Below, piece after piece: positions 550 through 19,455 of a stretch of 32,000 bases of DNA (position 1 is the first letter of the stretch; every line of letters begins with the position of its first letter). The stretch comes from Pyrodictium abyssi (lineage in GTDB: Archaea; Thermoproteota; Thermoprotei_A; Sulfolobales; Pyrodictiaceae), in NCBI RefSeq assembly GCF_036323395.1, contig NZ_AP028907.1, positions 1,440,001 to 1,472,000 of the forward strand, in the 5' to 3' direction. The translations under genes were made by a program, and so were the position numbers. Below the pieces are notes generated by a model, which saw only the letters and a list, made by a program, of their open reading frames with translations, was not told where the DNA came from and made no database searches.

Positions 550-1560
550 TTACCACGCTGGGGCGGTCTTACCCTTCACCGCCCTACTGCTATCACGTGC
601 ATACCTTAAGCAATTTTGTATACCCTTCCGTGGTACTAGCTCTGGGCATCTCTCTATAGTGAAGCTGCACCTCCCCGACAAGTAGTCATCTAGGCTGCAG
701 GGCTCTACGCGTACACGGTTTTCCTGAAGGACGCAGCGGGGCCCCGCGTACCGGAATATCTCTGGGTGAATTTCCACGAGCTTGTCATAGACGTTCCATG
801 CCAGCATGCGTATCTCCCACTGAGCATGGCTACACATCCTAAGCGGTAGGAAGCTTTCAAGGAGCTCCCGCGCGTTCATGGTGAAGACTACCCGTGTACG
901 GACAGCATGTGGTAGCACAAACCGCGCGTCCTCTCTCGGTACTCCTTTGGCAAGCATCTCGTAGTAGGCAGCAGTAGCGTTGAGATGTATGCGTACCTGC
1001 TGGAGGACCGTGTCCATGCTCCACCTCGGGTTTATCACATAGGCTCTGCTAACAGCTGCCACAATCCCGTCAACATGTGCTCCGTTACTCTCCCCTGCCA
1101 GTATTTGCTGTACTGCGTCGGCAGCCCGGCTTAGAGCCATGCTGTAGATGCTGTAGTCTACACTACTGCCCGGCTTCTCCGGACAGTTAACCCCGAGTAT
1201 GCTGCATATCTCCAGCACCATGCTTCTCAAGAATCCTTCTGTATACCTCATACTCTGCTGTGTATAGCTTGCTATCCGGTGGCGAACGAGCTGGTGGCTA
1301 CATACACGGCTGCAGACAGCCTCGAAAGTGTACACGGCGTGCTCTAGGGGGCTTCCATGCCCTCTACGTACAAGTTCACGTATCCATTTCTCGATATCGC
1401 TAGGCTGCATTTCCCAGGCCTTTTCCACCGGCTTCTTCGAGACTGTTATCCTGGCAGCTGCAGCGGCAAGGCGCGGAGCGTCACGGGTATATGAGATAAG
1501 CTTGACGCTAACCGGCGGCGCGATAGATGCTCTGCTAGTCGTTGCCTCTAATAGAGGCAT
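550..1560 (-). CDS. thyX: FAD-dependent thymidylate synthase ThyX
   Basis: The ThyX signature RHR..S....S.RY is present as 'RHRIASYTQQSMRY'. The gene has an ATG start and lies 119 nt downstream of the RNR gene on the same strand. Confidence 0.9.
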   Translation of the reverse strand: MPLLEATTSRASIAPPVSVKLISYTRDAPRLAAAAARITVSKKPVEKAWEMQPSDIEKWIRELVRRGHGSPLEHAVYTFEAVCSRVCSHQLVRHRIASYTQQSMRYTEGFLRSMVLEICSILGVNCPEKPGSSVDYSIYSMALSRAADAVQQILAGESNGAHVDGIVAAVSRAYVINPRWSMDTVLQQVRIHLNATAAYYEMLAKGVPREDARFVLPHAVRTRVVFTMNARELLESFLPLRMCSHAQWEIRMLAWNVYDKLVEIHPEIFRYAGPRCVLQENRVRVEPCSLDDYLSGRCSFTIERCPELVPRKGIQNCLRYARDSSRAVKGKTAPAW

Positions 1561-1679
1561 CTAGGCCCCGAAAAGTAGTACTGCAGTAAAACAGTGAGCG
1601 GAGAACTAAGACCCACGAGATAGTGATAAGCACCCTCACAGTTTTAATAGTGTATTCGCGGGGCTCGGCGTTACTACCC

Positions 1680-4676
1680 CTACATTTCGCATGTCTTACA
1701 TGTACTGTTCTCTGTGAGCTCTACTACTACCTCGCCCGTATCTGTTCGTGCTTCTTTTACCTCGAACAACTCCCTAGCTCTTCCATCCATCTCAAGCTCC
1801 TCTGGCCTAGCTCTTTTCCTTAAGTGCATCATCCTCATCTTCCGGCGTGGCTGCTCTTGGCTCTTCTTGCGCCGCCTTATAGGCTTGGTTGACAAGCTCT
1901 TCTGCTCGCCGCCGAAGTAGATTACCTGGAGGCCCTTGCTGCCGTCGCGGTAGACGGTTACACCCTTCAGGCCGCCCAGCCAGGCCACTAGGTAGGCGGT
2001 GAAGACCTCATCCCGTGTAGCCTCCTCCCTCAGGTTTATCGTCTTGCTTATAGCCTGGTCTACGTAGAGCTGGGCAGCCATCTGGTGGGCTAGGTGGTAC
2101 CACACGTCGAAGTCCATGCTCATCGTGAATAGTCTTGCCAGCCTTTCTATCTCGGCCAGGAGCCCGTTCATTATCCCCATCTGCATCAACTTGTCGCGTA
2201 TCTCATCCAGGGCCCAGCGGAGCGAGCCCTTATGTTTGCTGATCGTCTCGTAGACTAGTTTCACAGCTTCTTCTGGCGCCTTGTAGCGTGCAGCCGCCTC
2301 TAGTAGCTTCTCGCGGAACGGCCTCACCACCTCTAGGAACTCGCCGACCGCCACGACGCGCCTGTAGACGAGGGCGAAGTAGGGCTCTATGCCACTGCTG
2401 GTCCCAGCTATGATGCTTATTGTGCCCGTGGGGGCCACGGTTGTGGTGACCGTGTTCCTCGGGGCCTTGGCGCCTAGGAGGCGCCCGTAGCTCTTTAGCA
2501 GCTCCCATGCCGCTTGCGGCATCCATACTGCTAGCGCTAGTAGGTGCCTGGGACTGTTAGCCACCTTGACTGGGTGCAGCTTTAGCGCCTCCCATACGTG
2601 GCGCTTCTCTACCCCGAATACCTCGCGTGCTACACGCTCCAGCACGGGCTCCGGGACTAGCTTTATGCTGCCGTCTGGCTCAACCCTCTTCCGGGTCTCC
2701 CCGACGAGCTTTCCTCGTATCTCGTCTGGTATGCTCACCTTGTGGTACCGTATCTTCAGCCAGCCGTCTTCGAACCGGGCTACCTCAGCCGCCTTGAGTA
2801 GGGCCGGGGTATGCAGCTCTACTAGCTCCTCGGGCTCGCCCTTCTCTAGGCACTTCATGCTGCGCCAGTCCCAGCGCCTACACTCGAACGCGGGGGCGTG
2901 GCCCAGCTTGGCGCCTAGCTCCCAGCTACGCTTCCAGCTATAGACCTCCAGAGCCGCCATGACTATTAGGGTGAATGCTACAGCCTCCTCGCTATCATAT
3001 GGGTAGCCGAGCTTCGCGAGCGCGTCAGCTAGACCCATTATCCCTAGGCCTATCTTCCTTGTCAGCTTGTTGGCTGTATCCTGCCTAGGGTCAGGGTGGT
3101 TGTTGAGGTCTATGACAGCGTCCATGGCGCTTATTACCACTTGTACATCGTGCATGAATTTCTCTATGTCGAAGCGGCTGCCTACCACGTACTTCTCGAT
3201 GCTCATGCTGCCGAGGTTGCAGCTCTCAAACGGGTATAGTGGCTGCTCGCCGCAGGGGTTGGTGGCGTTAACCGCGCCGAGCCATGGAGTTGGGTTCCAC
3301 TTGTTGTGGTTGTCGGGTATGAAGAGTCCGGGGTCGCCGCCCGCCCACGCGTTTTCTACTATCTTGTCCCATATCCTGCGGGCCGGGTAGCGCCAAGCAT
3401 GAGGATTCTTGGTGTCGGGCTGTGTCTCCCAGCCAGTGTACCTGGCTTGCTCTCGGAGCGCTTCTAGGGCTTTCTTCTTAGCCTCCTCTACCACGTCCTC
3501 GTATATGTTGAGGTATGGATTGTCTAGCAGCCAGGGGTGTTTCTCTACAAGCTTGCCTACCCGGCCCGAGCCCGTAGCCCTGCTCACGCTATAGTGGATC
3601 CTGTAGACGCCAGCCTTGGGGTCGGCGCTGTACCTTGGGTTTACCATCCACCACTCCTTGTCCTCTAGCACAGCCTTCATGAATGAGTCGTTCACGCCCA
3701 CACTTATGTTGAAGTTGGTTATGTTGGCGTCCTGTAGCGGCGGCTCCTTTGCCTGTATGAAGCCCGCGTCTTCCACCGTGCTCCAGCCGCCACGTGTTAG
3801 TCTCTCTAGCATCTCCTTGACTGTACCGTCAACCTCGTATTCACCATCCTTCTCTATGGTGTCTACTATCTCTTTGAGCTGGCGTAGCAGGCCCTGGAGC
3901 TGTGGCGGTAGCTGGTTCCAGAGCGCCGCCCAGGGGTCGAAGTCTGGGTTGATTATGTCTGGATGCCATACATGCAGAATACCCATGTTTGCGCCGCGGC
4001 GCTTGCCGCCTTGCTTAACCATTTCCGTGACTACGTCGTATATCTGGATGAAGCTTAGAGGCCCAGAGGCGTAGCCACTGGTGCCCTTCACTATGTCCCA
4101 GCGGGGCCTGAGCTCTGAGAACGAGAAGCCCTGACCACCACCCCACTTGAAGGTCATGGCCTGGACTGTTGCTGCATCCATTATAGCGCGCATGTCATCG
4201 TAGACCGGGGTCACGTAGCATGCACTTAGAGTGCCTTTAGCCCCATTAGCGTACATGTTGAAGAGGGTTGGGGAGTTGAACATGAAGCGCCGGGTTACGA
4301 GTAGCCGGTACAGCTCTTCGGGGTCTACACGGCTCCGGAAGCCTAGCGCTACCCTCTTCATCACCATGCTGGGAGTCTCCATGAAGGCGCCGTACTCATT
4401 ACGGGTCATATACCTGGCCATGAGGACGCGGATGGCGTTGTAGGGGAAGCCTAGGTCGTCGACACAAGGCTCCTCACGCTTACCCTCTGCATACTCCTTC
4501 ACACATTCCGGTAGTGGTGCTAGGAGTCCACCATTGGGCGCCGTTTCCCGATAGCTACTAGCTATAGTAGGGTATATATCTGCGAGTAGGAGCCGCTTGG
4601 CCTCCTCTTCGGCCTCCGGCCGGTACAACGACTCCCTGATAAGTTCTAGCTGTTGCTTGTCGCTACTACCCGCCAC
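1680..4676 (-). CDS. nrdJ: Class II (adenosylcobalamin-dependent) ribonucleotide reductase
   Basis: 998 aa with a GTG start. Active-site loop 'NPCGEQPL', 'TVAPTGTISIIAGTSSGIEP', and a C-terminal Cys pair '...CKTCEM'. I see no intein-like insertion. Confidence 0.9.
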   Translation of the reverse strand: MAGSSDKQQLELIRESLYRPEAEEEAKRLLLADIYPTIASSYRETAPNGGLLAPLPECVKEYAEGKREEPCVDDLGFPYNAIRVLMARYMTRNEYGAFMETPSMVMKRVALGFRSRVDPEELYRLLVTRRFMFNSPTLFNMYANGAKGTLSACYVTPVYDDMRAIMDAATVQAMTFKWGGGQGFSFSELRPRWDIVKGTSGYASGPLSFIQIYDVVTEMVKQGGKRRGANMGILHVWHPDIINPDFDPWAALWNQLPPQLQGLLRQLKEIVDTIEKDGEYEVDGTVKEMLERLTRGGWSTVEDAGFIQAKEPPLQDANITNFNISVGVNDSFMKAVLEDKEWWMVNPRYSADPKAGVYRIHYSVSRATGSGRVGKLVEKHPWLLDNPYLNIYEDVVEEAKKKALEALREQARYTGWETQPDTKNPHAWRYPARRIWDKIVENAWAGGDPGLFIPDNHNKWNPTPWLGAVNATNPCGEQPLYPFESCNLGSMSIEKYVVGSRFDIEKFMHDVQVVISAMDAVIDLNNHPDPRQDTANKLTRKIGLGIMGLADALAKLGYPYDSEEAVAFTLIVMAALEVYSWKRSWELGAKLGHAPAFECRRWDWRSMKCLEKGEPEELVELHTPALLKAAEVARFEDGWLKIRYHKVSIPDEIRGKLVGETRKRVEPDGSIKLVPEPVLERVAREVFGVEKRHVWEALKLHPVKVANSPRHLLALAVWMPQAAWELLKSYGRLLGAKAPRNTVTTTVAPTGTISIIAGTSSGIEPYFALVYRRVVAVGEFLEVVRPFREKLLEAAARYKAPEEAVKLVYETISKHKGSLRWALDEIRDKLMQMGIMNGLLAEIERLARLFTMSMDFDVWYHLAHQMAAQLYVDQAISKTINLREEATRDEVFTAYLVAWLGGLKGVTVYRDGSKGLQVIYFGGEQKSLSTKPIRRRKKSQEQPRRKMRMMHLRKRARPEELEMDGRARELFEVKEARTDTGEVVVELTENSTCKTCEM

Positions 4677-4844
4677 TATAGTGCACCCCTGCTATCCTAG
4701 GGCACGGTAGGGGTAGTCTAGCCCTGCCACAATTAGTGCCGTGTAATACTTCTTGAGTGCAGCACCTAGCACTGTTATGTCTTCTATACGCCCGTAATAT
4801 ACTCCAAGCTACTCTGCCACCATAGTCTAGGTATCACTTGGTCT

Positions 4845-4874
4845 TACCCCTGCCACTGCAGCCTGTCAGGGGTA
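4845..4874. repeat. Inverted repeat TACCCCTG / CAGGGGTA (8 bp stem, 14-nt loop)
   Basis: 4845-4852 'tacccctg' and 4867-4874 'caggggta' are exact reverse complements. The repeat lies 30 nt beyond the stop of the 147-aa gene and inside the long untranslated region upstream of nrdJ. No oligo-T follows it on the minus strand. Confidence 0.5.
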
Positions 4875-4904
4875 GAACTAGCATGAAGGACTAGGTCTAC
4901 GGGG

Positions 4905-5348
4905 CTACATAAGGTAGATTATTATCTTATCGTATGGCTCCTCCTCGAAGTAGACCTTCCGCTTAGCCTGCATGTAGAGCATTACGTCCCGGCTTGTTAG
5001 CACAAAGTAGTCATAAAGGAAGCTAGCAGGCGTTATAACTGTAAGATATCTCTCGAACTCGAGATCCGTATAGACCACCTCAAAGTTGCCAATATAGTTC
5101 CTACCGACAATGTCCACGCGCGGCGCTTCCAGAGGCTTAAGCTCCTCGGCGAAACCTATGAAGAGCGTCTTCCTATTCCTATCTTCTACTTCCCTCTTGT
5201 AAGTGTACTTTGCCTCTATAGTGACGCTCCGCGGCTCAAACAGCAGCTCAGCGTTGGCAGCCCTTATCTCGAGGGCCTCCCTCATAACGCGTAGCTCTAG
5301 TGCACCACCGTTCCAGCGTACATAGAAGCTCTCACGCCTTACCATCAT
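4905..5348 (-). CDS. Hypothetical protein (147 aa) downstream of the KaiC-like ATPase
   Basis: Clean ORF with balanced composition, 80 nt downstream of the ATPase gene on the same strand. No motif recognised. Confidence 0.6.
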   Translation of the reverse strand: MMVRRESFYVRWNGGALELRVMREALEIRAANAELLFEPRSVTIEAKYTYKREVEDRNRKTLFIGFAEELKPLEAPRVDIVGRNYIGNFEVVYTDLEFERYLTVITPASFLYDYFVLTSRDVMLYMQAKRKVYFEEEPYDKIIIYLM

Positions 5349-5428
5349 TCATCCTCCTGCGTGAACCTTCCCTTTACGTCCAGGGCTCTAGGAGCCTGCG
5401 GGTCTTCCCTAATAGCGCCTTGGTGTTC

Positions 5429-6268
5429 CTAGGCCTCGTTTTCCCCATCGGGTATCTCTAGTAGCCTCTGTAGCTCCGCAGCCAGCATTCTTGCCGCGAC
5501 CGACGGCGGCAGAGCAGTGTCCTCTTTACGGTATACCGTAGGCGCTTTTACACGCATGCCTATACCGTCCCTTATCTCTATCTCGTGCATGCGGAGGCTG
5601 TGCTCCGTTTGCCTCATCTTTTCTATTATTACGTAGCGTCTAAGCTCTCCCCTTACGACAGACTTTCTAAACCTTATGATGCCGTCAGCCACGTGCTCTA
5701 TGCCGAAGCCGAAGCCAAGGCTCGTGGTGACGGCGTACTGGCTTATGAGCAGGGCCGTGAAGTCCCAGCGGTATAGGACCCGTTTAACGTAGTAGCTGTA
5801 TTTCCTGGCCATTGCCGGCTTGTCCAGCCAGAAGGCCGACATAGAGTCTACAACTAGGCGTGCCCTACCGTAGCCTAGGTACCTTTTCGCCTCTATTACC
5901 TTGTTGACCAGCGTCTCTACATCTAGCTCTGGAATACTCCATGGGTCGTCTCGTTTACCCATTAGCGCGTCTATTATGACAAGCTTGCCGTCGCGGATAG
6001 CTTTCTCGAAGTCGAATCCGAACATTGCTGCTTGCTTTATTATGCTCTCCTTTGACTCCTCGGTTGTCACGTAGATGTTTTTGTCCCCCTGCCGTATACC
6101 CTCGGCTATAAAGTGGATTGAGAATATCGTCTTACCTGTGCCGGGCTCGCCCACGACCGCGACGAAGAAGCCTCGGGGTATACCTCCCTGTATGAGTTTG
6201 TCGAAGCCAGGCACTCCCGTCGGTAATCGTTCTATCTCCACCTTCAATACTACCACGACACCCCACAC
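5429..6268 (-). CDS. KaiC-like / RecA-superfamily single-domain ATPase
   Basis: 'TGVPGFDKLIQGGIP', Walker A 'GEPGTGKT', Walker B-like 'RLVVDSMSAF', and the typical C-terminal 'RYVIIEKMRQTEH...EIRDGIGMRV'. The start is uncertain: GTG 6268, or TTG/GTG 20-27 nt further in. Confidence 0.85.
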   Translation of the reverse strand: MWGVVVVLKVEIERLPTGVPGFDKLIQGGIPRGFFVAVVGEPGTGKTIFSIHFIAEGIRQGDKNIYVTTEESKESIIKQAAMFGFDFEKAIRDGKLVIIDALMGKRDDPWSIPELDVETLVNKVIEAKRYLGYGRARLVVDSMSAFWLDKPAMARKYSYYVKRVLYRWDFTALLISQYAVTTSLGFGFGIEHVADGIIRFRKSVVRGELRRYVIIEKMRQTEHSLRMHEIEIRDGIGMRVKAPTVYRKEDTALPPSVAARMLAAELQRLLEIPDGENEA

Positions 6269-6374
6269 GCCATGAAGGCCGAAGAAGCGCCGGGTCGTCG
6301 CAGCAGTACTATGTTGCTGGGCCCCAGCACCCTCTACGTATTGTCTGGCTGGAGACTGGCTAATCTATACTGTC

Positions 6375-6767
6375 CTAGGCGGGGCCCGGGCAGCCCCTAT
6401 CGTCGCGGTAGTAGGAGCAATAGCCTGTGGCCGTGCACGCCTCTACAAGCACTAGGCGCAACTGGCGCCCAATACTGGCTAGCTTGTTGGCTAGGCACTC
6501 GTATATTCTGCTGACTAGCACCTCTGCTGTTGCGTCTCTTACTCCTAGCACCTCGTTTAGATACACGTGGTCGAGCTCTCCGGTGCACTCGCTGAGGAGT
6601 CTCTCGAGCACGTAGTGGTCGACTACTGTATTGTCGCTGCCCAGGGGGCCTTCAACGCACACCCGTAGCCTATAGTCGTGGCCATGCAGCGAGGCCGCGG
6701 AGCCTCCAAGGCTTTCAACGCGGAGAGCAGCCGATATCCAGGTTGACACGCAGACACCCAGTACCAT
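6375..6767 (-). CDS. queD: 6-carboxytetrahydropterin synthase / 6-pyruvoyl-tetrahydropterin synthase family (QueD-like)
   Basis: 130 aa T-fold-sized protein with the Zn-binding 'LHGHDYRLRV' motif typical of PTPS/QueD. ATG start. Confidence 0.75.
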   Translation of the reverse strand: MVLGVCVSTWISAALRVESLGGSAASLHGHDYRLRVCVEGPLGSDNTVVDHYVLERLLSECTGELDHVYLNEVLGVRDATAEVLVSRIYECLANKLASIGRQLRLVLVEACTATGYCSYYRDDRGCPGPA

Positions 6768-6873
6768 TACGCATCCCTTCTATGCCGCGTCTCTGAAGGC
6801 CCGGCTCTACGTCTACCCGTGATACCGCGTGCTAGCCGGGGGTGAGCCTCTTAGCTGCTAGCATGCCTGGAGC

Positions 6874-7383
6874 GTGCACAGAGGGGCGGCAGTGGCGCTT
6901 CCGGGTATATATGCTGCTGCGTATCTACTCGCGGGGCCGGCTCGGGGCCAGGTACAGCCTGCTGGAGTCGATCTGCGCGTGGGAGAGGTACACGTTTTCC
7001 GGGAATCAGGGTACCTTGGCGCCGAGGGCCGGAGGATACCCGCCTCGGAGCCACTAGAGCCGGAGGGTGGTGCTTGGCTCCTTAGCCCCGGCTTCTACAA
7101 GGCGGTCTTCATGGACGCGGTCCACATCCCGGAGAATACTGTTGCTACCTGCTTTCCCCGTAGCAGCTTGCTACGCATGGGCGCGTTACTGGGATGCGCT
7201 GTATGGGACCCCGGGTACCGTGGTAGGGGCGAAGCCTTGCTCGTTGTCGGTAACCCGCACGGGATCCGGATAGAGGTCGGGGCCCGGATAGCCCAGCTCG
7301 TGTTCATAAGGCTCTACCCACAGCTCGGCGAAAGGTATAGCGGTGTATACCAGGGCGAGAGGCTAGCGAGAGAGCAGGTCTAG
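6874..7383 (+). CDS. dut: dUTP diphosphatase (archaeal dCTP deaminase/dUTPase superfamily)
   Basis: 'VQPAGVDLRVGEV', 'FPRSSLLRMG', 'DPGYRGRGEALLVVGN', 'RIAQLVFIRL'. The start is GTG at 6874 (alternative GTG at 6892). The 3' end overlaps the 3' end of the convergent MutS-like gene by 21 nt. Confidence 0.8.
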   Translation: MHRGAAVALPGIYAAAYLLAGPARGQVQPAGVDLRVGEVHVFRESGYLGAEGRRIPASEPLEPEGGAWLLSPGFYKAVFMDAVHIPENTVATCFPRSSLLRMGALLGCAVWDPGYRGRGEALLVVGNPHGIRIEVGARIAQLVFIRLYPQLGERYSGVYQGERLAREQV

Positions 7384-9486
7384 AACCTTCTCAAAGAATT
7401 CTCGTTCGCTTTTCCTCCTGGACTTCCTCAACAGCTTAGTCACTATGAGCTCGGGGGTGGAGCGGGCTAGGTAGTTGTACCGCGGGCTCCGGTCTACTAT
7501 GAGGTTGTAGTTCTCGTCGAGCCCGCGGGCTTCTATACCGTCTATCCTTACCCGGGCTCTTAGCTCCGGGGGTATAGCCTCAACGACCTCCCCGGCAAGG
7601 TGGCTAACTATTACTGCTACCGAGTCCCGGCTCTCTGCTATCGACGATGCTATAGCGGCTACTATCCGGGCTGCCGCGTGTGCCTCCGTTATTGCCTCTA
7701 GCTCGTCTACTAGCAGTAGTACGCGCTTCCGTTGCGCCTCCTCTACTATCGCTGCTATCTTTTTCAGCGTCTCCTCTAGCCCTCCAGCGTCGAGCATACC
7801 TGTCGGCTTCGAGATAAAGTATACGCGGTCAAAGCCGCCTACCCACGCCCTTGAGGCCAGTACTGGTAGGCCGGCCTGGCCCGCGAGGACTATCTCGCCT
7901 ATAGTCTTCAGCAACGTGGTCTTACCACCACTATTGGCCCCCGTGAGGAGCACAACCCTTTCACAGTTGGTGCCTTCTGGCCTGTAAGGCGTGCAGCCTA
8001 CTACGTAGCTTACCGGCTGGACCTCTACCCCGGCGGCAAGGAGGCCTGCCTCGGCTGCGTCGGTGAACCCGACCCCCGTGAACCCGCGGCTAACCTCAGC
8101 AATGGAGCCGCGTCTTTCCTCTATGAAGCTGCTGGCAGCAAGCGCTATGTCTGTCCAAGCTAGTATCTCGGCCATTGTAGGCAGTAGTTCTACTAGCCGG
8201 CTAAGCCTGCGCGCGTGCTCCCTTGAGAACATGTACACGCTGAGGCTTATTCTACGCTCTAGGTGCTTCCGGAGCCTCTCTATGGGTTCCCTCTGCACCT
8301 CTATAGGGAACTGGGGTCTAGGCTCCACTACGCCGCGTATTAGCTCCCGCTCCTCTGGCCCCAGGCCAAGCATATGGGCAAGCTTCTCCTCGGCCTCGAC
8401 ACTAATCTCCTCAAATATCTCCAGGAGCTCGTCCGGTATATGCAGGTGCCCCTCCTCTAGCGAGTGTATTAGACGCAGGAACTCTGCCGCGCTTAGGCGT
8501 AGCTCTCGCTCCTCGAGACGGCGCCTGGCCTCTTCATTCACCCAGACTTCGAGGTCTGACACAGCGGACTCTAGGCTCTTTACCGCCGTGAGCGCGTGCC
8601 AGTACTCTGGGTCTATGTCGCCTTTTTCGAGCCGTTCTAGCACGCTCTGCGCGTCTCTGGCTAGCCTGGCTATCTCGTCCACAGTAGCCTGCTTAACGCC
8701 TATAGCCTCGGAGACCTCTACCACGAGGCTCCGTGCCACGGTGTAGACCCTGGCGAATGACTCGATGAGCTTCATGTTCTGGCGCAGCGTCTCAAGGACA
8801 GCCTCCGGGGCCACGGTGTACTTGTCGAGCCTATCTATCTCCACTACACCAGGCCTGCCAGCAGCATCAACCATGTACGCTAGCACTATGCCCTGTTCCG
8901 GCACATCGTCTATAGACTCGGCCTCAACGATGGTTATCCCAGATACATCGCTGCCCAGTATTTCCCGGAGCCTGTCCCCCTGGCCACGGGGCACGACGAC
9001 CACGCGCTCCACATGGACTCTAGGCCTTCTAGGCCACTCTACGCGCGAAAGAGCCTCCCTCACCGCAGCCTTCGCATCCCCCGAGACCTTGGACGCTGCC
9101 TCGACTAGTCTCCTGGTTTTTCTCAGCACTCTCTCTATTTCGGCCTCCACCCGTCCAGGCACAGGCGCCAGGGACGAAACCAGGTCCCTGCCAGGCGCCG
9201 ACGCTATGTGGCCAGCTAGTAGGCGGGCAACGGCCTCGAATAGTCTGGCCGCGTCAGCTGTCCCGACAACCTCTCCAGGATCATAGCCTCCCAGCGCCCC
9301 ACGGGCCTGCTGCACGAGCCGAACCGCTCTACGGGTGGAGGAGACGGCCTCGGCTACACTCGCTACTTGGCCGCGTAGCAGTGCTTCTAGAGCTTTCTCT
9401 TCCGAGCCAAAGTACTCTACGAGTTTTTCGTAGATCCGCTCGCCGACGCCTGGTATGTCGCGTAGTCTTAGCCTCTGCCTACCCAT
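7363..9486 (-). CDS. MutS-related ATPase (MutS domain V only) with N-terminal helix-hairpin-helix
   Basis: N-terminus 'LRDIPGVGERIYEKLVEYFGS' (HhH). The C-terminal part has 'LLTGANSGGKTTLLKTIG' (MutS-type Walker A) and 'LLLVDELEAITE' (MutS 'DELGRGT' position). No mismatch-binding domain I is recognisable. Confidence 0.85.
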   Translation of the reverse strand: MGRQRLRLRDIPGVGERIYEKLVEYFGSEEKALEALLRGQVASVAEAVSSTRRAVRLVQQARGALGGYDPGEVVGTADAARLFEAVARLLAGHIASAPGRDLVSSLAPVPGRVEAEIERVLRKTRRLVEAASKVSGDAKAAVREALSRVEWPRRPRVHVERVVVVPRGQGDRLREILGSDVSGITIVEAESIDDVPEQGIVLAYMVDAAGRPGVVEIDRLDKYTVAPEAVLETLRQNMKLIESFARVYTVARSLVVEVSEAIGVKQATVDEIARLARDAQSVLERLEKGDIDPEYWHALTAVKSLESAVSDLEVWVNEEARRRLEERELRLSAAEFLRLIHSLEEGHLHIPDELLEIFEEISVEAEEKLAHMLGLGPEERELIRGVVEPRPQFPIEVQREPIERLRKHLERRISLSVYMFSREHARRLSRLVELLPTMAEILAWTDIALAASSFIEERRGSIAEVSRGFTGVGFTDAAEAGLLAAGVEVQPVSYVVGCTPYRPEGTNCERVVLLTGANSGGKTTLLKTIGEIVLAGQAGLPVLASRAWVGGFDRVYFISKPTGMLDAGGLEETLKKIAAIVEEAQRKRVLLLVDELEAITEAHAAARIVAAIASSIAESRDSVAVIVSHLAGEVVEAIPPELRARVRIDGIEARGLDENYNLIVDRSPRYNYLARSTPELIVTKLLRKSRRKSEREFFEKVLDLLSR

Positions 9487-13464: not shown

Positions 13465-13565
13465 ACCAGACAGACCTCCTCCAATAATGTATAGCTTGAG
13501 GAGCTAGGATTTAACACATCCGTTTAAGTCGACTAGTGGTACTGCGGAGGGTCCAATTCAGCAGC

Positions 13566-14033
13566 ATGGTGCGTGCCGCTTTGGAGGAGAGGAAGAGGCA
13601 GAACTACATGACTGAGGGGACAATAGTCATTATAGACCTAGACCGGTTTGGCGAAGTCGTAGAAGAGAGGGGATGGAGCGAGTATAGCCCTAATCCGGCT
13701 ACAGGGTTGCTGACCAGTCTAGTAGAGATGTTTGTTAGAAAGTGGCAAGGCGTTGTCATCTATGGTCTTGACGAGGCCCGCGGGACGGAGGAAGTAGTTA
13801 TAGAGATACCTCTTGTCGAACCCGAGGAGCTGAGACAAGACCTCGAATCCATAAAGCAAGAGCTGAATAGCCTAGGAGTAGGCGTGACCATAGTAGCTGT
13901 TAAGGGCTATGTGCTTGGAAGGCCTGCCAGCGATAGAAGGGAGGCGTATACAGCTACACCATTTAGGCGCTATGCCCTCTCTATACTGAGGAGGACCAAG
14001 CGACGCGGAGGCAACCAAGTAGTAATTGCGTAG
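13566..14033 (+). CDS. Stand-alone minimal palm-domain protein (GGDEF / Cas10-palm-like nucleotide cyclase fold)
   Basis: 'GTIVIIDLDRFGEVVEERGW' resembles the GGDEF 'iDiDhFK.iND..GH' strand-helix. 'VVIYGLDEARGTEEVVIEIP' sits where the GGDEF hairpin would be (GLDEA for GGDEF). A helix and 'VGVTIVAVKG' follow. The start is ATG 13566 (alternatives GTG 13536, ATG 13608). TATA-like 'tttaaca'/'gtttaag' lies at ~13511-13530. Confidence 0.55.
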   Translation: MVRAALEERKRQNYMTEGTIVIIDLDRFGEVVEERGWSEYSPNPATGLLTSLVEMFVRKWQGVVIYGLDEARGTEEVVIEIPLVEPEELRQDLESIKQELNSLGVGVTIVAVKGYVLGRPASDRREAYTATPFRRYALSILRRTKRRGGNQVVIA

Positions 14034-14089: not shown

Positions 14090-15217
14090 CTACACCTCCT
14101 CCATAGTGGTCGTCATACCAGTTACCGAGCTCGGCGTGCGTTCTATAGATCTTATCTCTACTAGCGATTCTCTTGGCTGTACGCTATGCATTGTAGTCTC
14201 TAGCAGCATTGCAAGCTTAGCTTCAAGCTCATCTGGCGGCAGCTTGCTTAACGCCTTGGCGGCCTCGTACAGCTTTGTGAAGGGCCTACTTGTCCCCTTG
14301 TACGTTGCCCCATTACTCGCAACTTCTAGCAGTATCCACGCGTTAAAGAGTGCACGCGCTTCAAAGCTGGAGACTAGACTCTCATGCGTTATGTTAAGAA
14401 GATCTGCAGCTTTGCTTACGAACTTCCGGTAAGTGTCTATCTCGTCTTCACGCAGTGTTGCAGGGCCGAAGCGTACTTTCTGCCCACTTATATGGCGCTC
14501 ACCGAGCCCCGGGACAATTATCTTGCCAAAGGCCGCCTTATGGCGCCACGTCTGTGTATCACCACTATCTACTCCGATTATCCGGAGTAGTGGAATAACG
14601 GCTGCAGAGGCAAGTCCGAGAGCGTGTAGCTTTCCCCGCCATAGCTTCCGCAAGAGTGTGAGGAATATCACTGCCTTGAGCCTTGAACTCTTCCCCGACC
14701 TCTGCATGAAGTGTGGTATAAGGCCTCCCGCTGCAGCTATATAGGTATGTGGCTCATAGCTACGGAGCTGTAGTCTTAGGGACTCTCCTACCGCCATATG
14801 GAATACTGGAATAAGCCTGCCCTCTTCAACCAGGCTTCTTAGCGTATTTTTGAGCGACATAAAGCTTGATATCGTTCTAGCTATCTTCCTCGCACGCGTA
14901 CTACTGTCGTCTAGAGGACCCGGGGGATAGTCTAGGCTTATATAGTAGTCCGCATCCACCTCCTTGTAGACTTTGGCTATTTTATAGGTCCCCGGGTCGA
15001 TGCCGCGCTTAAGAAACTGATAGCCGCCACTGTCTATCCAGAGCTCTATGTCGTCATCTATACCGAGGAGCTTACGTAGGCCTCTCCCGCGTACCCGGCT
15101 AAGCCCTATCCTCAGTATGTCGTATGCGTTCACCATTATTCCGGATACTGGGAGGATGGACCAGGGATGAGGAACCGCGTTTATAGGCGTTCCCAGAATC
15201 AGCTTGAATCCGCCCAT
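14090..15217 (-). CDS. tRNA-guanine-transglycosylase (TGT) superfamily paralog, Zn-site-less, DpdA-like
   Basis: 'LWIDSGGYQFLKRG' matches the Tgt 'DSGGFQ' Asp motif. 'LHALGLASAAV' matches 'YLMGVGTP'. 'GVDSGDTQTWRHKAAFGKI' matches 'FDCV.PTR.AR.G' (second catalytic Asp). There is not one Cys in 375 aa, so the CxCxxC..H zinc site is absent. No PUA-like C-terminus. Confidence 0.75.
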   Translation of the reverse strand: MGGFKLILGTPINAVPHPWSILPVSGIMVNAYDILRIGLSRVRGRGLRKLLGIDDDIELWIDSGGYQFLKRGIDPGTYKIAKVYKEVDADYYISLDYPPGPLDDSSTRARKIARTISSFMSLKNTLRSLVEEGRLIPVFHMAVGESLRLQLRSYEPHTYIAAAGGLIPHFMQRSGKSSRLKAVIFLTLLRKLWRGKLHALGLASAAVIPLLRIIGVDSGDTQTWRHKAAFGKIIVPGLGERHISGQKVRFGPATLREDEIDTYRKFVSKAADLLNITHESLVSSFEARALFNAWILLEVASNGATYKGTSRPFTKLYEAAKALSKLPPDELEAKLAMLLETTMHSVQPRESLVEIRSIERTPSSVTGMTTTMEEV

Positions 15218-15235
15218 TGTAACACGCCAAGTATT

Positions 15236-15273
15236 AGGTATTATCGGTCACAATGATGGACTAAAGGTATTAT
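15236..15273 (-). promoter_or_regulatory. Two direct copies of ATAATACCT (minus-strand reading) upstream of the TGT-like gene; the proximal copy is the likely TATA box
   Basis: Plus-strand 'aggtattat' occurs at 15236-15244 and 15265-15273. The proximal copy is centred ~23 nt upstream of the ATG at 15217, which suits a leaderless or near-leaderless mRNA. Confidence 0.45.
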
Positions 15274-15350
15274 CCAGAGGAAGGACCATTACTATAATAA
15301 ACCTGGGTTAAAGGGCATAACTATAAGACTCCATTCAGAGCGCTTAAGCT

Positions 15351-15429
15351 AGGGGATGAAGAGGCTCGAAAGGGCAGAGCCCGGCGACACCGCCGGGACA
15401 CGGTGAAGAGCCGCGCAGCACAGACCCCT
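15351..15429 (+). ncRNA. Candidate structured small RNA (three nested helices), class unresolved
   Basis: Nested exact pairings: AGGGG 15351-55 with CCCCT 15425-29; GGCTC 15363-67 with GAGCC 15408-12; CCCGGCG 15380-86 with CGCCGGG 15391-97 (loop ACAC). TATA-like 'actataataaa' and 'aactataag' lie 25-60 nt upstream on the plus strand. 'ACA' occurs at 15420-22 and 15434-36. The strand is not certain. Confidence 0.35.
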
Positions 15430-15565
15430 GCCTACAGAGTCTAGCCTAAGGAACAGACGGTACTAGTGGTAAGCATGCAACCTAGAGAACAGAGATTACA
15501 CACCAAAGTGACTATCTCATATACGAGATATAATACTTCTGTACCACGGCATAACTTGCACAGGG

Positions 15566-15655
15566 ACCGTGGGTGATGATGTTACGCACTCATTGAGCCA
15601 CCCATCCCCGCGTGAGGCTATAGAGGCGATGAAATAGCCCACCTCACTGACACTC
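15566..15655 (+). ncRNA. Candidate box C/D sRNA with an unusually long D'-C' spacer
   Basis: C 'GTGATGA' 15573-79, D' 'TTGA' 15593-96 (13-nt spacer), C' 'GCGATGA' 15626-32, D 'CTGA' 15647-50 (14-nt spacer). TATA-like 'atataata' is at 15528-35. The D' guide 'GTTACGCACTCA' is complementary to 'TGAGTGCGTAAC', which resembles a conserved LSU rRNA segment (from memory). Confidence 0.45.
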
Positions 15656-16039
15656 GATACCACATTCATAGATTGCCTCGCCGCATGATACCTTGATTCT
15701 CATTACGCCCTCGTCGCCATACTCTATGTCTAGCTGCGCAGCTCCACAACCAGGCCTCTTAGCTATCAATATTGTGCCTAGTTCTTTATGCCTCTGCTCC
15801 TCGACTACTATATTGTCGAGCCCAAGCCCGCTATACACAGCATATAAATCCATGGCAATGAGCCGCAACGCGCGTGATAGGCTAGGCACAGCTTTCCTAC
15901 ACAGATTCAGCCCTATGGACTTGCAAGATAGTCTTACGATAGTCTCTACGGGCGAGTCATACGCGTCTATAACGCTTGCATTGCTGGTAGAGGCCGCACA
16001 GAGCTCGTTAGATACCTTTACGCTAGTTACCCGCACCAC
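15644..16039 (-). CDS. Hypothetical Cys-rich protein (131 aa), apparently co-transcribed with the radical-SAM gene
   Basis: It starts 12 nt after the radical-SAM stop. It has 7 Cys, three of them in the last 13 residues ('SCGEAIYECGIEC'). The overlapping plus ORF 15693..16067 is Ser/Leu/Thr-rich shadow. No family recognised. Confidence 0.55.
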   Translation of the reverse strand: MVRVTSVKVSNELCAASTSNASVIDAYDSPVETIVRLSCKSIGLNLCRKAVPSLSRALRLIAMDLYAVYSGLGLDNIVVEEQRHKELGTILIAKRPGCGAAQLDIEYGDEGVMRIKVSCGEAIYECGIECQ

Positions 16040-16051
16040 TACACCAACACC

Positions 16052-16825
16052 CTACCTTGGCTCGTAGTAAAATCTGGGCTTTAATCCTAGAAGCCGCAAT
16101 CTACGCTTTGCGGGCGGATAGAGCACTAGAGGCTCTACCTCTATATTCTCCAGTAAATCGGGTCCCGCAGCATCCACAAGTCTTTCAAGCAGCTGTGCCC
16201 AGCATGCCTCGTCTCCAAAGGCAGCAAATATCGCTACATGAAACGATACACCGTAGTCAGCCAGGTGCTTTACGGCACGGATAGGATATTCATAGAAGTC
16301 CGGACTAGCACCGGTCAGTTTTGTGAAGAGTTCGGGGCTACAAGCCTTTATCGATACACGTACATGCAGCCTACGGAACCCTGAAAGCACTCTGACGTAC
16401 TCACGCCTAGCCCCCATGAGTACACCATTAGTTTCAAGGATGAATGTATAGCTGCTATTCTGCTCAAAGAGTTCTATGAGCCTCCCGAGGTGGTTGAATC
16501 CTATCGTGGGCTCTCCTCCAGACAACCTTACGTACTTATAGCCCCTTGTTTTAGCTATACTGTCTAGTCTTCGATACGCCTCTTCTGGCGATACAAGGAA
16601 ACCTAGCCGCACATCGTCTCTAGGCCGCCCCGTCCAGCAGAATGCACAACGAAGATTACAACCTACAACGTCTCCTACCGCGCTTCCGCCGTAAAACCTG
16701 CTCCCCCTAAACCTATAGTATTTACGCCTACTACCAGACACAACCCTTTGCTCTATCATTTCAGCTAGCCTAACCGGGTCAAAACCCCTTATACGTGAGC
16801 CCTCGATCACCAGACCTACCTCCAT
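16052..16825 (-). CDS. Small radical-SAM enzyme
   Basis: Cluster motif 'GCNLRCAFCW' (CxxxCxxC) and SAM-binding 'RLSGGEPTI'. I prefer the ATG at 16825 (MEVGLVIEG...) over the track's GTG at 16906, because a 'tatata' box (16880-85) lies inside the extension. It lacks the QueE-type 'QGEG'/'CDT' features. Confidence 0.8.
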   Translation of the reverse strand: MEVGLVIEGSRIRGFDPVRLAEMIEQRVVSGSRRKYYRFRGSRFYGGSAVGDVVGCNLRCAFCWTGRPRDDVRLGFLVSPEEAYRRLDSIAKTRGYKYVRLSGGEPTIGFNHLGRLIELFEQNSSYTFILETNGVLMGARREYVRVLSGFRRLHVRVSIKACSPELFTKLTGASPDFYEYPIRAVKHLADYGVSFHVAIFAAFGDEACWAQLLERLVDAAGPDLLENIEVEPLVLYPPAKRRLRLLGLKPRFYYEPR

Positions 16826-16911
16826 CGCAGCATCGTATCTAGTAGCCTGCTTTCCCTCCTGTCGGGCACCAGCTACTCCTATATACCAGAGCCCTAGGCT
16901 ATTCACGCTGT

Positions 16912-18885: not shown

Positions 18886-19455
18886 ATGAGGATAGATAAG
18901 GAGAAGATAGAGCAGGCGGTGCGCCTCATACTAGAAGCGATCGGGGAGAATCCGGAGAGAGAAGGCCTCAAGGATACTCCGCGCCGTGTAGCCGAGATGT
19001 TCGAGGAAATTCTCTCGGGCTACAAGGATAATGAAGAGTATACGTGGTTTACGGAGACCAGTGACCTAGTAGTAGTCTCGGGTATAAGGTTCTATAGTCT
19101 CTGTGAGCACCACATACTACCGTTCTTTGGTGTAGCCCACGTAGCGTATCTGCCGAGGGGCCGTGTCATAGGTCTTTCAAAGGTCGTCCGTATAGTGAAC
19201 AAGTATGCTAGGAGGCTGCAGATACAGGAGCGCATGACACAGCAGATAGCCGAGGAGGTTTCCAGAGCCACCGGTTCTCCGGACGTAATGGTCGTTACCG
19301 AGGCTGTACACCTGTGCATGGCTATGCGCGGCGTGCGGACTCCAGCACCTACAGTTGTCGCTGCCGTACGTGGAGCCTTCGCCACGCGGAGCAGCCTTAA
19401 AGACGAGGTCTACCGGATAATAGAGCCTCATAGGTTTAAGGGGTTCCCGCTCTGA
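18886..19455 (+). CDS. folE: GTP cyclohydrolase I (FolE type)
   Basis: '[14 protein letters not shown]', '[19 protein letters not shown]', 'RLQIQERMT'. The 3' end overlaps the convergent SPOUT gene by 20 nt. Confidence 0.9.

Follow-up and report, generated by a model that had tools for sequence, protein, structure and literature searches.

We analysed a stretch of 32,000 nucleotides from the archaeon Pyrodictium abyssi (NCBI RefSeq assembly GCF_036323395.1, contig NZ_AP028907.1, positions 1,440,001 to 1,472,000 of the forward strand; hereafter the window, numbered from its first letter), and in it a gene on the minus strand whose product belongs to the tRNA-guanine transglycosylase (TGT) superfamily. 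A preliminary description, made from the letters alone, had read this product as closer to the DNA transglycosylase DpdA than to ArcTGT, the archaeal tRNA enzyme. The open reading frame (ORF) at 14090..15217 runs from an ATG start to a stop codon and encodes 375 amino acids (aa) beginning MGGFKLILGTP, with a pI of 9.7, which fits a nucleic-acid-binding protein. The features of the gene and its product are as follows (bDpdA, bacterial DpdA; Pho ArcTGT, the enzyme of Pyrococcus horikoshii).

14090..15217, minus strand: coding sequence of a cysteine-free, DpdA-like TGT-superfamily protein of 375 aa (ORF call, AlphaFold2 model, Foldseek)
Residues 6-11, minus strand: N-terminal motif LILGTP
Residues 61-68 (15014..15037), minus strand: IDSGGYQF, with D62 as the general acid/base Asp by homology; invariant, aligning with 'VDSGSFQ' of Pho ArcTGT and 'GDCGAF' of bDpdA
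Residues 94-99 (14921..14938), minus strand: SLDYPP, with D96 as the base-binding Asp by homology; invariant, corresponding to Asp130 of ArcTGT and Asp130 of bDpdA
Residues 137-140 (14798..14809), minus strand: PVFH, with His140 at the Gln position of tRNA TGTs; P137 and H140 invariant (compare bDpdA His181 and 'CFH' of DpdA1)
Residues 164-168 (14714..14728), minus strand: GGLIP, the hydrophobic Leu-Ile pocket pair (signature table)
Residues 198-204, minus strand: HALGLAS
Residues 215-231 (14525..14575), minus strand: GVDSGDTQTWRHKAAFG, with D220 as the covalent nucleophile by homology (invariant residues; alignment with ArcTGT Asp249)
Residues 285-294 (14336..14365), minus strand: FEARALFNAW, remnant of the 'HN' helix, in which the zinc-ligand His is Phe291 (signature alignment)
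Residues 346-375 (14093..14182), minus strand: predicted disordered, poorly conserved C-terminal tail (pLDDT <50; variable among 25 aligned homologues)

The AlphaFold2 (AF2) model (pLDDT 86.9, pTM 0.86) consists of one TIM-barrel domain followed by a helical C-terminal region. Foldseek recovered the TGT fold in the PDB, with ArcTGT and Tgt as top matches (1IQ8 at 2e-12, TMq 0.60), and the best structural match overall was a TGT-like protein of the rudivirus SBRV1 in BFVD (E 2.9e-16, TMt 0.81, rmsd 3.9 A). The Pfam scan gave no match at E<=0.1 and no PUA, TGT_C or DUF5591 domain, and by both the scan and the single-domain model the C1, C2 and PUA domains are missing, in agreement with the earlier statement that PUA and C-terminal RNA-binding domains are absent. 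The same description had drawn attention to the complete lack of cysteine. This is indeed the case, but a count of zero is by itself only mildly unusual and weak evidence: cysteine makes up 0.84% of the neighbouring proteins, which gives a probability of about 0.04 for none in 375 aa, and the adjacent GDH (422 aa) likewise contains none. The informative fact is instead the loss of the zinc site, because across the clade other residues stand at all four ligand positions (CxCxxC and the 'HN' His), so that the site cannot form, as had been claimed.

In an alignment of 25 homologues with a mean column identity of 48%, the residues D62, D96, P137, H140, G164, G165, S218, D220, W224, R225, K227, A228 and G231 are invariant, as are G239, E240, R241, F285, R288, A289 and N292. 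Profile alignment to P. horikoshii ArcTGT puts D62 on Asp95, D96 on Asp130 and D220 on the nucleophile Asp249, and therefore the original assignment of 'IDSGGYQF' and 'GVDSGDTQTW..KAAFG' (residues 215-224 and 227-231) as catalytic-Asp motifs was correct; 'GLAS' is also present, within HALGLAS. D62 and D96 align in addition with D95 and D130 of bDpdA, the aligned fragment of which stops just before its stated nucleophile, Asp256. The P. abyssi protein has the three-Asp, TGT-type (beta/alpha)8 barrel expected of the DpdA branch. In bDpdA, replacement of Asp95 or of the nucleophile Asp by Ala abolishes guanine exchange in DNA (PMC10164549).

An exhaustive profile search with the family of the P. 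abyssi protein returned 1,210 representative clusters in two tiers. Tier 1 (E < ~1e-58) is cysteine-poor and without CxCxxC; tier 2 (E ~1e-56 to 1e-27) comprises proteins of about 360-390 aa that keep a CxCPxC zinc motif; the Pyrodictiaceae sequences are called the core below. When phage records were searched by tblastn, the matches were almost solely crenarchaeal viruses, namely STSV1/STSV2 (34.7% identity over residues 58-297, E 9e-31) and about 30 rudivirus records (about 25% identity, E down to 1e-11). Hutinet et al. 2019 (Supplementary Data 1) give both STSV2_15 (YP_007348259) and SIRV2 ORF310 (NP_666547) under the name DpdA, and the nearest named relatives, as judged by sequence, are thus the DpdA proteins of the Sulfolobus viruses STSV2 and SIRV2. 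A scan of IMG/VR with motifs of the family gave no matches, and an exact look-up of the P. abyssi protein itself turned up nothing.

Of the DpdA-specific models, that of phage DpdA1 matches the protein and those of bDpdA do not. PHROG 887, the DpdA1 family, matches phage 9g DpdA at 2e-98, SIRV2 ORF310 at 4e-73 and STSV2_15 at 6e-56, and also the P. abyssi protein at 2.3e-11 and its orthologues in H. butylicus (1.6e-10) and Pyrolobus (2.7e-11); E. coli Tgt and two canonical ArcTGTs gave no match to it. The TgtA model (NCBIfam TIGR00432, cut-off 350 bits) reached 23.4 bits and covered residues 25-127 only. Neither the bacterial Tgt model TIGR00430 nor the ArcS model NF040592 matched the protein, which has no Cys and no DUF5591 domain, the ArcS C1 motif being PC-X3-KPY-X2-S-X2-H (PMC10516641). 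By curated sequence models, it is classed as neither ArcTGT, ArcS nor bacterial Tgt. The protein family itself is already known and forms part of the DpdA1/crenarchaeal-virus DpdA group.

Two signatures, both confined to DpdA-type proteins in our signature alignment, set the protein apart from the tRNA enzymes. At the position of His140, His is found in 33/33 DpdA-side sequences (core, tier 1, tier 2, DpdA1 and bDpdA) and Gln in 13/13 tRNA enzymes (twelve ArcTGTs and E. coli Tgt); its bDpdA counterpart, His181, makes contact with the base (PMC10164549). At the fourth residue past the nucleophile Asp, the core, tier 1, tier 2 and DpdA1 carry Trp (DTQTW, DSSSW), with Tyr in the two viral tier-1 members, whereas the same stretch reads DSASY in ArcTGT and DCVMP in bacterial Tgt (bTgt). 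The 'DS...W' that had been noted in place of 'D..PTR' is therefore a real point of resemblance to DpdA1 of phages 9g and CAjan (both DSSSW), and the longer motif W224-R-x-K-A-A-F/Y-G is common to the P. abyssi protein, tier 2 and phage DpdA1.

Other proposed marks of DpdA are less general. The 'HN' helix reads F/I/L-N in the core and tier 1, Y/F/W-N in DpdA1, and 'HN' in ArcTGT, bTgt and tier 2; because the His is replaced in both of the former groups, core/tier 1 and DpdA1 have lost the entire zinc site. Bacterial DpdA, however, is reported to keep a zinc motif (PMC5699537), so that zinc loss is typical of phage DpdA1 and not of bacterial DpdA. Similarly, the N-terminus 'LILGTP....P.W' is present as described, but it recurs in the uncharacterised tier-2 family and is not an established mark of DpdA. 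The GGLIP pocket is of the type that accepts 7-cyano-7-deazaguanine (preQ0), like 'GGVVP' of ArcTGT and 'GGMVP' of bDpdA, and differs from 'GGLAVGE' of the preQ1-type bacterial Tgt, the published rule for pocket specificity being VV versus LA (PMC5699537).

In a neighbour-joining (NJ) tree of 46 sequences (291 columns, 200 bootstraps), the Pyrodictiaceae core was recovered in 198/200 replicates, the core with tier 1 (STSV2 and SIRV2 included) in 177/200, and these with tier 2 in 126/200. The split of core, tier 1, tier 2, DpdA1 and bDpdA from ArcTGT and E. coli Tgt appeared in 196/200 replicates; the clade of the P. abyssi protein never joined ArcTGT (0/200), and a group of core, tier 1 and DpdA1 was found in 9/200. 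In cross-scoring of hidden Markov models, 9g DpdA1 obtained 23 bits with the core profile, 43 with that of tier 1 and 44 with that of tier 2, compared with 0.2 bits for the profile of ArcTGT, while the core profile gave 7 bits for bDpdA and -1.4 bits for E. coli Tgt. Because raw profile scores do not discriminate, the placement rests on tree topology together with shared derived characters. The tree, His140 and the listing of the viral relatives as DpdA bear out the choice of DpdA over ArcTGT, from which we infer an activity on DNA; they support the view that the protein belongs to the DpdA side of the TGT superfamily, apart from the tRNA enzymes. On these sequence comparisons, the best explanation is a zinc-free base-exchange enzyme of the DpdA branch, probably active, that is encoded in a cellular genome, inherited vertically and related to the DpdA of STSV1/2 and rudiviruses and, at a greater distance, to phage DpdA1.

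Comparison with the known systems shows where the P. abyssi protein agrees with them and where it departs. The DpdA proteins of STSV1/2 and the rudiviruses fall in the same clade and are likewise zinc-free. Those of STSV2 and SIRV2 share its DSGG(Y/F)Q, LD.P and PVIH motifs, and STSV2 DpdA keeps D-x3-(W/Y)RVKA and RxxxNAW, both of which are degraded in SIRV2. The viral proteins are 291-310 aa long, without the C-terminal extension of about 70 aa, and are carried by viruses, whereas the P. abyssi gene is chromosomal, vertically inherited and part of the core gene set of its family. In STSV2, the gene is followed by a DUF5591/ArcS-core gene, amid DNA methyltransferase and thymidylate synthase genes, a partner that the P. 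abyssi gene lacks. STSV2 virion DNA contains 2'-deoxy-7-carboxy-7-deazaguanosine (dCDG) at 0.04% of G, and the adjacent STSV2_16 is the ArcS-core (DUF5591) protein (PMC10516641). Phage DpdA1 (9g gp03, CAjan gp35; PHROG 887) has the same His at the Gln position, Trp four residues after the nucleophile, 'AAFG.I..P' and 'RA..N.W' motifs, loss of all four zinc ligands and absence of tRNA-binding domains. Identity on shared columns is nevertheless about 20%, DpdA1 reads 'DSGAFS' in place of 'DSGGYQ', the two are not sisters in the tree, and DpdA1 genes lie in phage preQ0/G+ clusters or beside ParB-like genes, unlike the gene studied here.

Bacterial DpdA (S. Montevideo, PDB 7UI4) shares the TGT barrel, the three Asp residues, the base-reading His, the side of the tree and the absence of PUA. 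However, it keeps the zinc motif, has DpdA-specific insertions, matches very weakly (E 0.003), and depends on the ParB-like ATPase DpdB and acts together with DpdC and DpdD-K, none of which is encoded at the P. abyssi locus. ArcTGT/TgtA (P. horikoshii 1IQ8) is the best solved-structure match both by profile (3e-11) and by Foldseek, with aligned catalytic Asp residues and a preQ0-type hydrophobic pocket, but it has Gln for His, the CxCxxC...H zinc site, C1 (PF17884), C2 and PUA. The short TGT-like proteins of tier 2 (e.g. P0080, P0085, P0160) are the next-closest family, at 195 bits against its profile. They resemble the P. abyssi protein in the His, the W-R-x-K-A-A motif, an N-terminal 'LGH...P.W' and a length of about 360-390 aa; unlike it, they retain the zinc site and show a patchy distribution resembling that of mobile elements or defence islands, and their genes often adjoin DUF5591, HerA/NurA, SIR2 or YhhQ-type transporter genes.

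When one genome per species was scanned, 65 loci were recovered. The gene is present in all sampled Pyrodictiaceae with conserved synteny, among housekeeping neighbours (a radical S-adenosylmethionine (rSAM) gene, a small ORF, FeoB, a 165-aa protein, GDH and a pyrophosphatase); the Pyrolobus orthologue lies in a different context and shares no orthologous neighbours. It is a stand-alone, vertically inherited core gene of the Pyrodictiaceae, and it is under strong purifying selection, with a dN/dS of 0.057 against the closest orthologue (L012). Its product is 96% identical to a protein in a metagenome-assembled genome (MAG) labelled P. delaneyi.

A separate tRNA enzyme is annotated in Pyrodictium delaneyi, in answer to the question, raised in the preliminary description, of a canonical ArcTGT elsewhere in the genome. 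The proteomics supplement for strain Su06 names Pyrde_0066 (A0A0P0N1J1) 'tRNA-guanine(15) transglycosylase' and Pyrde_1600 (A0A0P0N3Z2) 'Uncharacterized protein', and both are among the proteins detected by mass spectrometry but not labelled with tandem mass tags (PMC8105010). Pyrde_1600 would be the positional orthologue of the P. abyssi gene, because the surrounding tags reproduce the gene order of the window: 1594 (mismatch-repair-like), 1597 (D-glycerate dehydrogenase), 1598 (GDH), 1603 (DUF89), 1604 (pyrophosphatase) and 1605 (GTP cyclohydrolase 1). Pyrde_0066 lies about 1,530 locus tags away, so that by annotation P. delaneyi has an ArcTGT distinct from this orthologue. Coexistence of this kind is seen elsewhere too: the clade is present in additional, scattered copies in Ignicoccus, Pyrobaculum and Vulcanisaeta, and viral members of it infect S. 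islandicus, a host with an ArcTGT of its own (Hutinet et al. 2019, Supplementary Data 1). Crenarchaeal ArcTGTs among the best 120 of 3,943 matches are 530-550 aa long and carry PF01702 and PF17884, the matches listed all being Thermofilum-like. In full-length crenarchaeal/TACK ArcTGTs (P0342-P0457, among the matches listed), PF17884 (DUF5591) is the C1 domain.

On balance, we incline to the view, drawn from sequence relationships, that the P. abyssi protein is a transglycosylase that places a 7-deazaguanine in DNA and draws on the preQ0 pathway of the cell. As judged from its homologues Tgt, ArcTGT and bDpdA, it would act by double displacement, Asp220 attacking C1' of the target guanine nucleotide to give a covalent glycosyl-enzyme intermediate, with Asp62 as general acid/base and Asp96 and His140 binding the base. 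The Leu166/Ile167 pocket would take a 7-deazaguanine without an aminomethyl group, either preQ0 or possibly 7-carboxy-7-deazaguanine (CDG), supplied by the FolE-QueD-QueE-QueC pathway of the cell. Double-stranded chromosomal DNA would be the likeliest substrate, and the product would be 2'-deoxy-preQ0 (dPreQ0) or a related 2'-deoxy-7-deazaguanosine at low density. DNA is preferred on four grounds: where the family falls in the tree, the modified DNA of viral relatives, the DNA-processing genes that accompany relatives elsewhere, and the separate ArcTGT. Conversion to 2'-deoxyarchaeosine (dG+) is not predicted from the locus, because it holds no adjoining DUF5591 (ArcS-core) partner. The role of such a base may be self-marking or epigenetic protection.

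Several observations weigh against this view. Raw similarity is no closer to DpdA: ArcTGT scores 24-29 bits against the core profile and 9g DpdA1 23 bits, the family profile matches PDB ArcTGT at 3e-11 and bDpdA at 0.003, and the bDpdA models (NCBIfam NF041059, PADLOC DpdA) do not match the protein. The tree is a simple NJ reconstruction of very divergent sequences that does not include ArcS or DpdA2-4. The dCDG of STSV2 amounts to only 0.04%, and its origin was left unexplained by the authors (PMC10516641). The identity of Pyrde_0066 comes from its UniProt name rather than from its sequence. In the Pyrodictiaceae, no dpdB, dpdC, HerA, DUF5591 or restriction-like gene lies near the gene, and a family core gene in a housekeeping context suits a role in RNA as well as an orphan DNA modification.

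This last point makes a second RNA target a serious rival, as the gene is housekeeping-like in the Pyrodictiaceae. The protein would then be a second RNA-guanine transglycosylase, placing a 7-deazaguanine at a tRNA position other than G15 or in another RNA such as rRNA or sRNA, which would explain its core status; we consider this unlikely, though well worth keeping in view. The conserved synteny, purifying selection, housekeeping surroundings and absence of defence genes all fit it, as does the fact that ArcTGT is the top solved-structure match by sequence profile. Multisite ArcTGTs are described, for example in Thermoplasma at G13 and G15 (PMC4770233), and a paper on ArcS remarks that enzymes of 7-deazaguanine modification may also accept other RNAs that have a D-arm-like structure (PMC11298593). 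The protein itself, however, has no C1, C2 or PUA domain and is without the zinc subdomain that forms the TGT dimer, and its Gln-to-His change and W motif are confined to DNA-linked family members. The tree separates it from the tRNA enzymes, and its closest relatives sit in viruses without a tRNA pathway, the host of one of which is reported to lack 7-deazaguanine in tRNA (PMC10516641).

The following features of the window bear on precursor supply and on the immediate surroundings of the gene.

18886..19455, plus strand: GTP cyclohydrolase I (FolE), which begins the route to preQ0 (PF01227 1.1e-66; 38% identical to phage 9g FolE; orthologue Pyrde_1605)
6375..6767, minus strand: PTPS/QueD-family protein, a candidate 6-carboxytetrahydropterin (CPH4) synthase, QueD or pterin PTPS (PF01242 4.6e-16)
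15218..15643, minus strand: upstream intergenic region of 426 bp, presumed to hold the gene's own promoter, which parts the gene from the rSAM and 131-aa pair (by coordinates; no Rfam family or tRNA)

FolE would probably serve the P. abyssi enzyme as precursor supply, though not specifically; it and the QueD-family gene are only loosely near (within 8 kb). Downstream, the stretch 550-9486 forms a nucleotide/DNA-metabolism cluster with ThyX, a class II-like ribonucleotide reductase (RNR; 998 aa), a KaiC/RadA-like ATPase, the PTPS/QueD-family gene, dCTP deaminase and a 707-aa MutS-domain-V/AAA protein (the 'DNA mismatch repair protein' Pyrde_1594). This setting, the stand-alone gene and the lack of a recognisable nucleic-acid-binding accessory domain could suit a salvage or base-exchange enzyme for free nucleosides or nucleotides rather than polymers. 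We regard such a role as improbable: the protein is strongly basic (pI 9.7), its relatives are linked to the DNA-processing HerA and NurA, and we know of no TGT-superfamily member with free nucleotides as its physiological substrate. A point in favour of such chemistry is that ArcS can use a preQ0 nucleoside 5'-phosphate (PMC11298593).

The conserved catalytic Asp residues, the preQ0-type pocket and the FolE and QueD-family genes within 8 kb would also be compatible with a minimal, sole ArcTGT of the Pyrodictiaceae that makes preQ0-15 in tRNA, and the catalytic domain of ArcTGT alone is said, from work by Sabina and Soll in 2006, to modify G15 in vitro. Even so, we hold this to be very improbable, given the separately named tRNA-guanine(15) transglycosylase Pyrde_0066, a score of 23.4 bits against the 350-bit TgtA cut-off, and the presence of the clade beside a canonical ArcTGT in other lineages, as well as in viruses whose hosts bear an ArcTGT. 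Least credible of all is a remnant of viral origin, since domesticated, that still binds DNA or RNA but has lost base-exchange catalysis, for although the zinc subdomain is lost and the nearest relatives are viral, the catalytic and base-binding residues are all invariant in 25 sequences, dN/dS is 0.057, and phage DpdA1 enzymes active in vivo are also zinc-free (PMC6884629).

If the protein is a DNA 7-deazaguanine transglycosylase, its implications reach beyond this gene. As it stands beside, and does not replace, the normal tRNA enzyme, these archaea may introduce modifications into their own DNA. The Pyrodictiaceae have growth temperatures of 95-113 C, and we raise tentatively, with more doubt than conviction, the possibility that they constitutively swap some chromosomal guanines for a 7-deazaguanine of the preQ0/CDG type by means of a domesticated viral-type DpdA that has a housekeeping function and no linked restriction module. 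If true, this would be the first cellular archaeal DNA hypermodification, and it might mark the cell's own DNA against an unlinked nuclease, hinder nucleases of the virus or the host, or locally shield sites prone to depurination. So far, 7-deazaguanines in DNA are documented in bacteria with dpd islands, phages and a few archaeal viruses, and the literature searched contains no demonstration of them in the genome of a cellular archaeon. That literature also gave no account of cellular archaeal members of the family, of its core-gene status in the Pyrodictiaceae or of modules linked to HerA, NurA or DUF5591. In the present case, a whole family of extreme hyperthermophiles conserves a chromosomal gene for a DpdA-type enzyme, beside an ordinary annotated ArcTGT, and the clade offers a cellular context for the unexplained dCDG in STSV2 DNA. 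Proteins of the clade are currently labelled 'hypothetical' or '7-cyano-7-deazaguanine tRNA-ribosyltransferase'; His-for-Gln and D-x3-W would distinguish them from the tRNA enzymes.

Closer to the gene, directly upstream at 15644-16906 on the minus strand, a gap of only 12 bp separates an rSAM gene (284 aa, CNLRCAFC) from a 131-aa ORF. The rSAM gene is present in 16 Pyrodictiaceae loci and the 131-aa ORF was detected by sequence in three only; the 131-aa protein has a positional orthologue, Pyrde_1601, that is readily detected in the proteome of P. delaneyi. As a candidate QueE or RaSEA, which would have made an ArcS/RaSEA-like pair, the rSAM protein (16052-16906) was rejected: its best NCBIfam match is MoaA (4e-13), QueE models give 28 bits against cut-offs >200, its best PDB matches are TYW1 and MoaA, it shows no similarity to phage 9g QueE, and the Pyrolobus orthologue of the DpdA-like gene does not stand beside an orthologous rSAM gene. 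It reaches no curated cut-off for QueE, RaSEA or MoaA. On the other side, at 13536-14033 on the plus strand and convergent to the gene, a 165-aa protein conserved in 13 Pyrodictiaceae loci has no Pfam match and a marginal GGDEF-like match (E 0.052). The 165-aa and 131-aa flanking proteins showed no similarity that would make either a DUF5591/ArcS-core partner, and a 700-aa gene downstream in seven Pyrodictiaceae genomes, considered as a DpdB- or HerA-like ATPase, proved to be FeoB. The whole window contains no Rfam families and no tRNAs.

Outside the Pyrodictiaceae, copies of the clade are patchy and occur in Ignicoccus pacificus, Pyrobaculum oguniense, Pyrobaculum MAGs, Vulcanisaeta, Thermocladium, Thermodiscus, Njordarchaeota and one bacterial MAG. 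One Pyrobaculum MAG (JBKBOT01) has three TGT-like copies on different contigs (L046, L047, L060), which suggests an association with mobile elements. A HerA-type ATPase lies <=6 kb from the TGT-like gene in 16 loci, mostly adjoining, with PADLOC HerA matches down to 1.8e-46. A DUF5591/ArcS-core gene lies <=6 kb away in 9-11 loci and adjoins in seven, STSV2 among them; such pairs resemble a split, zinc-free ArcTGT-like architecture, because DUF5591 is the C1 domain of ArcTGT. NurA and an NTPase of 1300-1400 aa lie <=6 kb from the TGT-like gene in three loci. This repeated coupling to HerA, NurA and the ArcS core in Thermoproteales, Ignicoccus and Njordarchaeota points to possible archaeal modification-restriction modules.

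In L005 5638-14598, L007 218-8356 and L070 4203-12982, the NurA, HerA-type ATPase, STAND/AAA-like NTPase of 1300-1400 aa and TGT-like genes occur in three orders, with DUF5591 in some. The set looks like a modification-restriction-type module; HerA aside, no PADLOC system matched it. Eight Vulcanisaeta genomes carry a HerA and TGT-like pair inserted between the housekeeping genes UbiA/Nre and DUF2848 (L049, L051-L053, L056, L058, L063; ~6300-8950), and HerA is split into 2-3 ORFs in 4/8 of them, the TGT-like gene being intact there.

Tier 2 (P0080-P0203) comprises at least 93 representative clusters and combines the DpdA-type His with an intact CxCPxC zinc site. One member (L008) lies near a Vut_1/YhhQ-type transporter, an N6_N4 DNA methyltransferase, HerA-NurA, a Cdc6-like gene and Hjc, and another (L004) adjoins DUF5591 and SIR2. 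Among viruses, ORF399 of SIRV2, a weakly amino-acid-permease-like membrane protein, directly precedes ORF310 (L078 1188-3328) and could be a precursor transporter. In Mycobacterium phage Typha (L083 1-1423) and Fusobacterium phage phiFN37 (L084 1-1216), DpdA adjoins a ParB-like gene, a pairing that echoes that of DpdA with the ParB-like ATPase DpdB in bacterial dpd islands.

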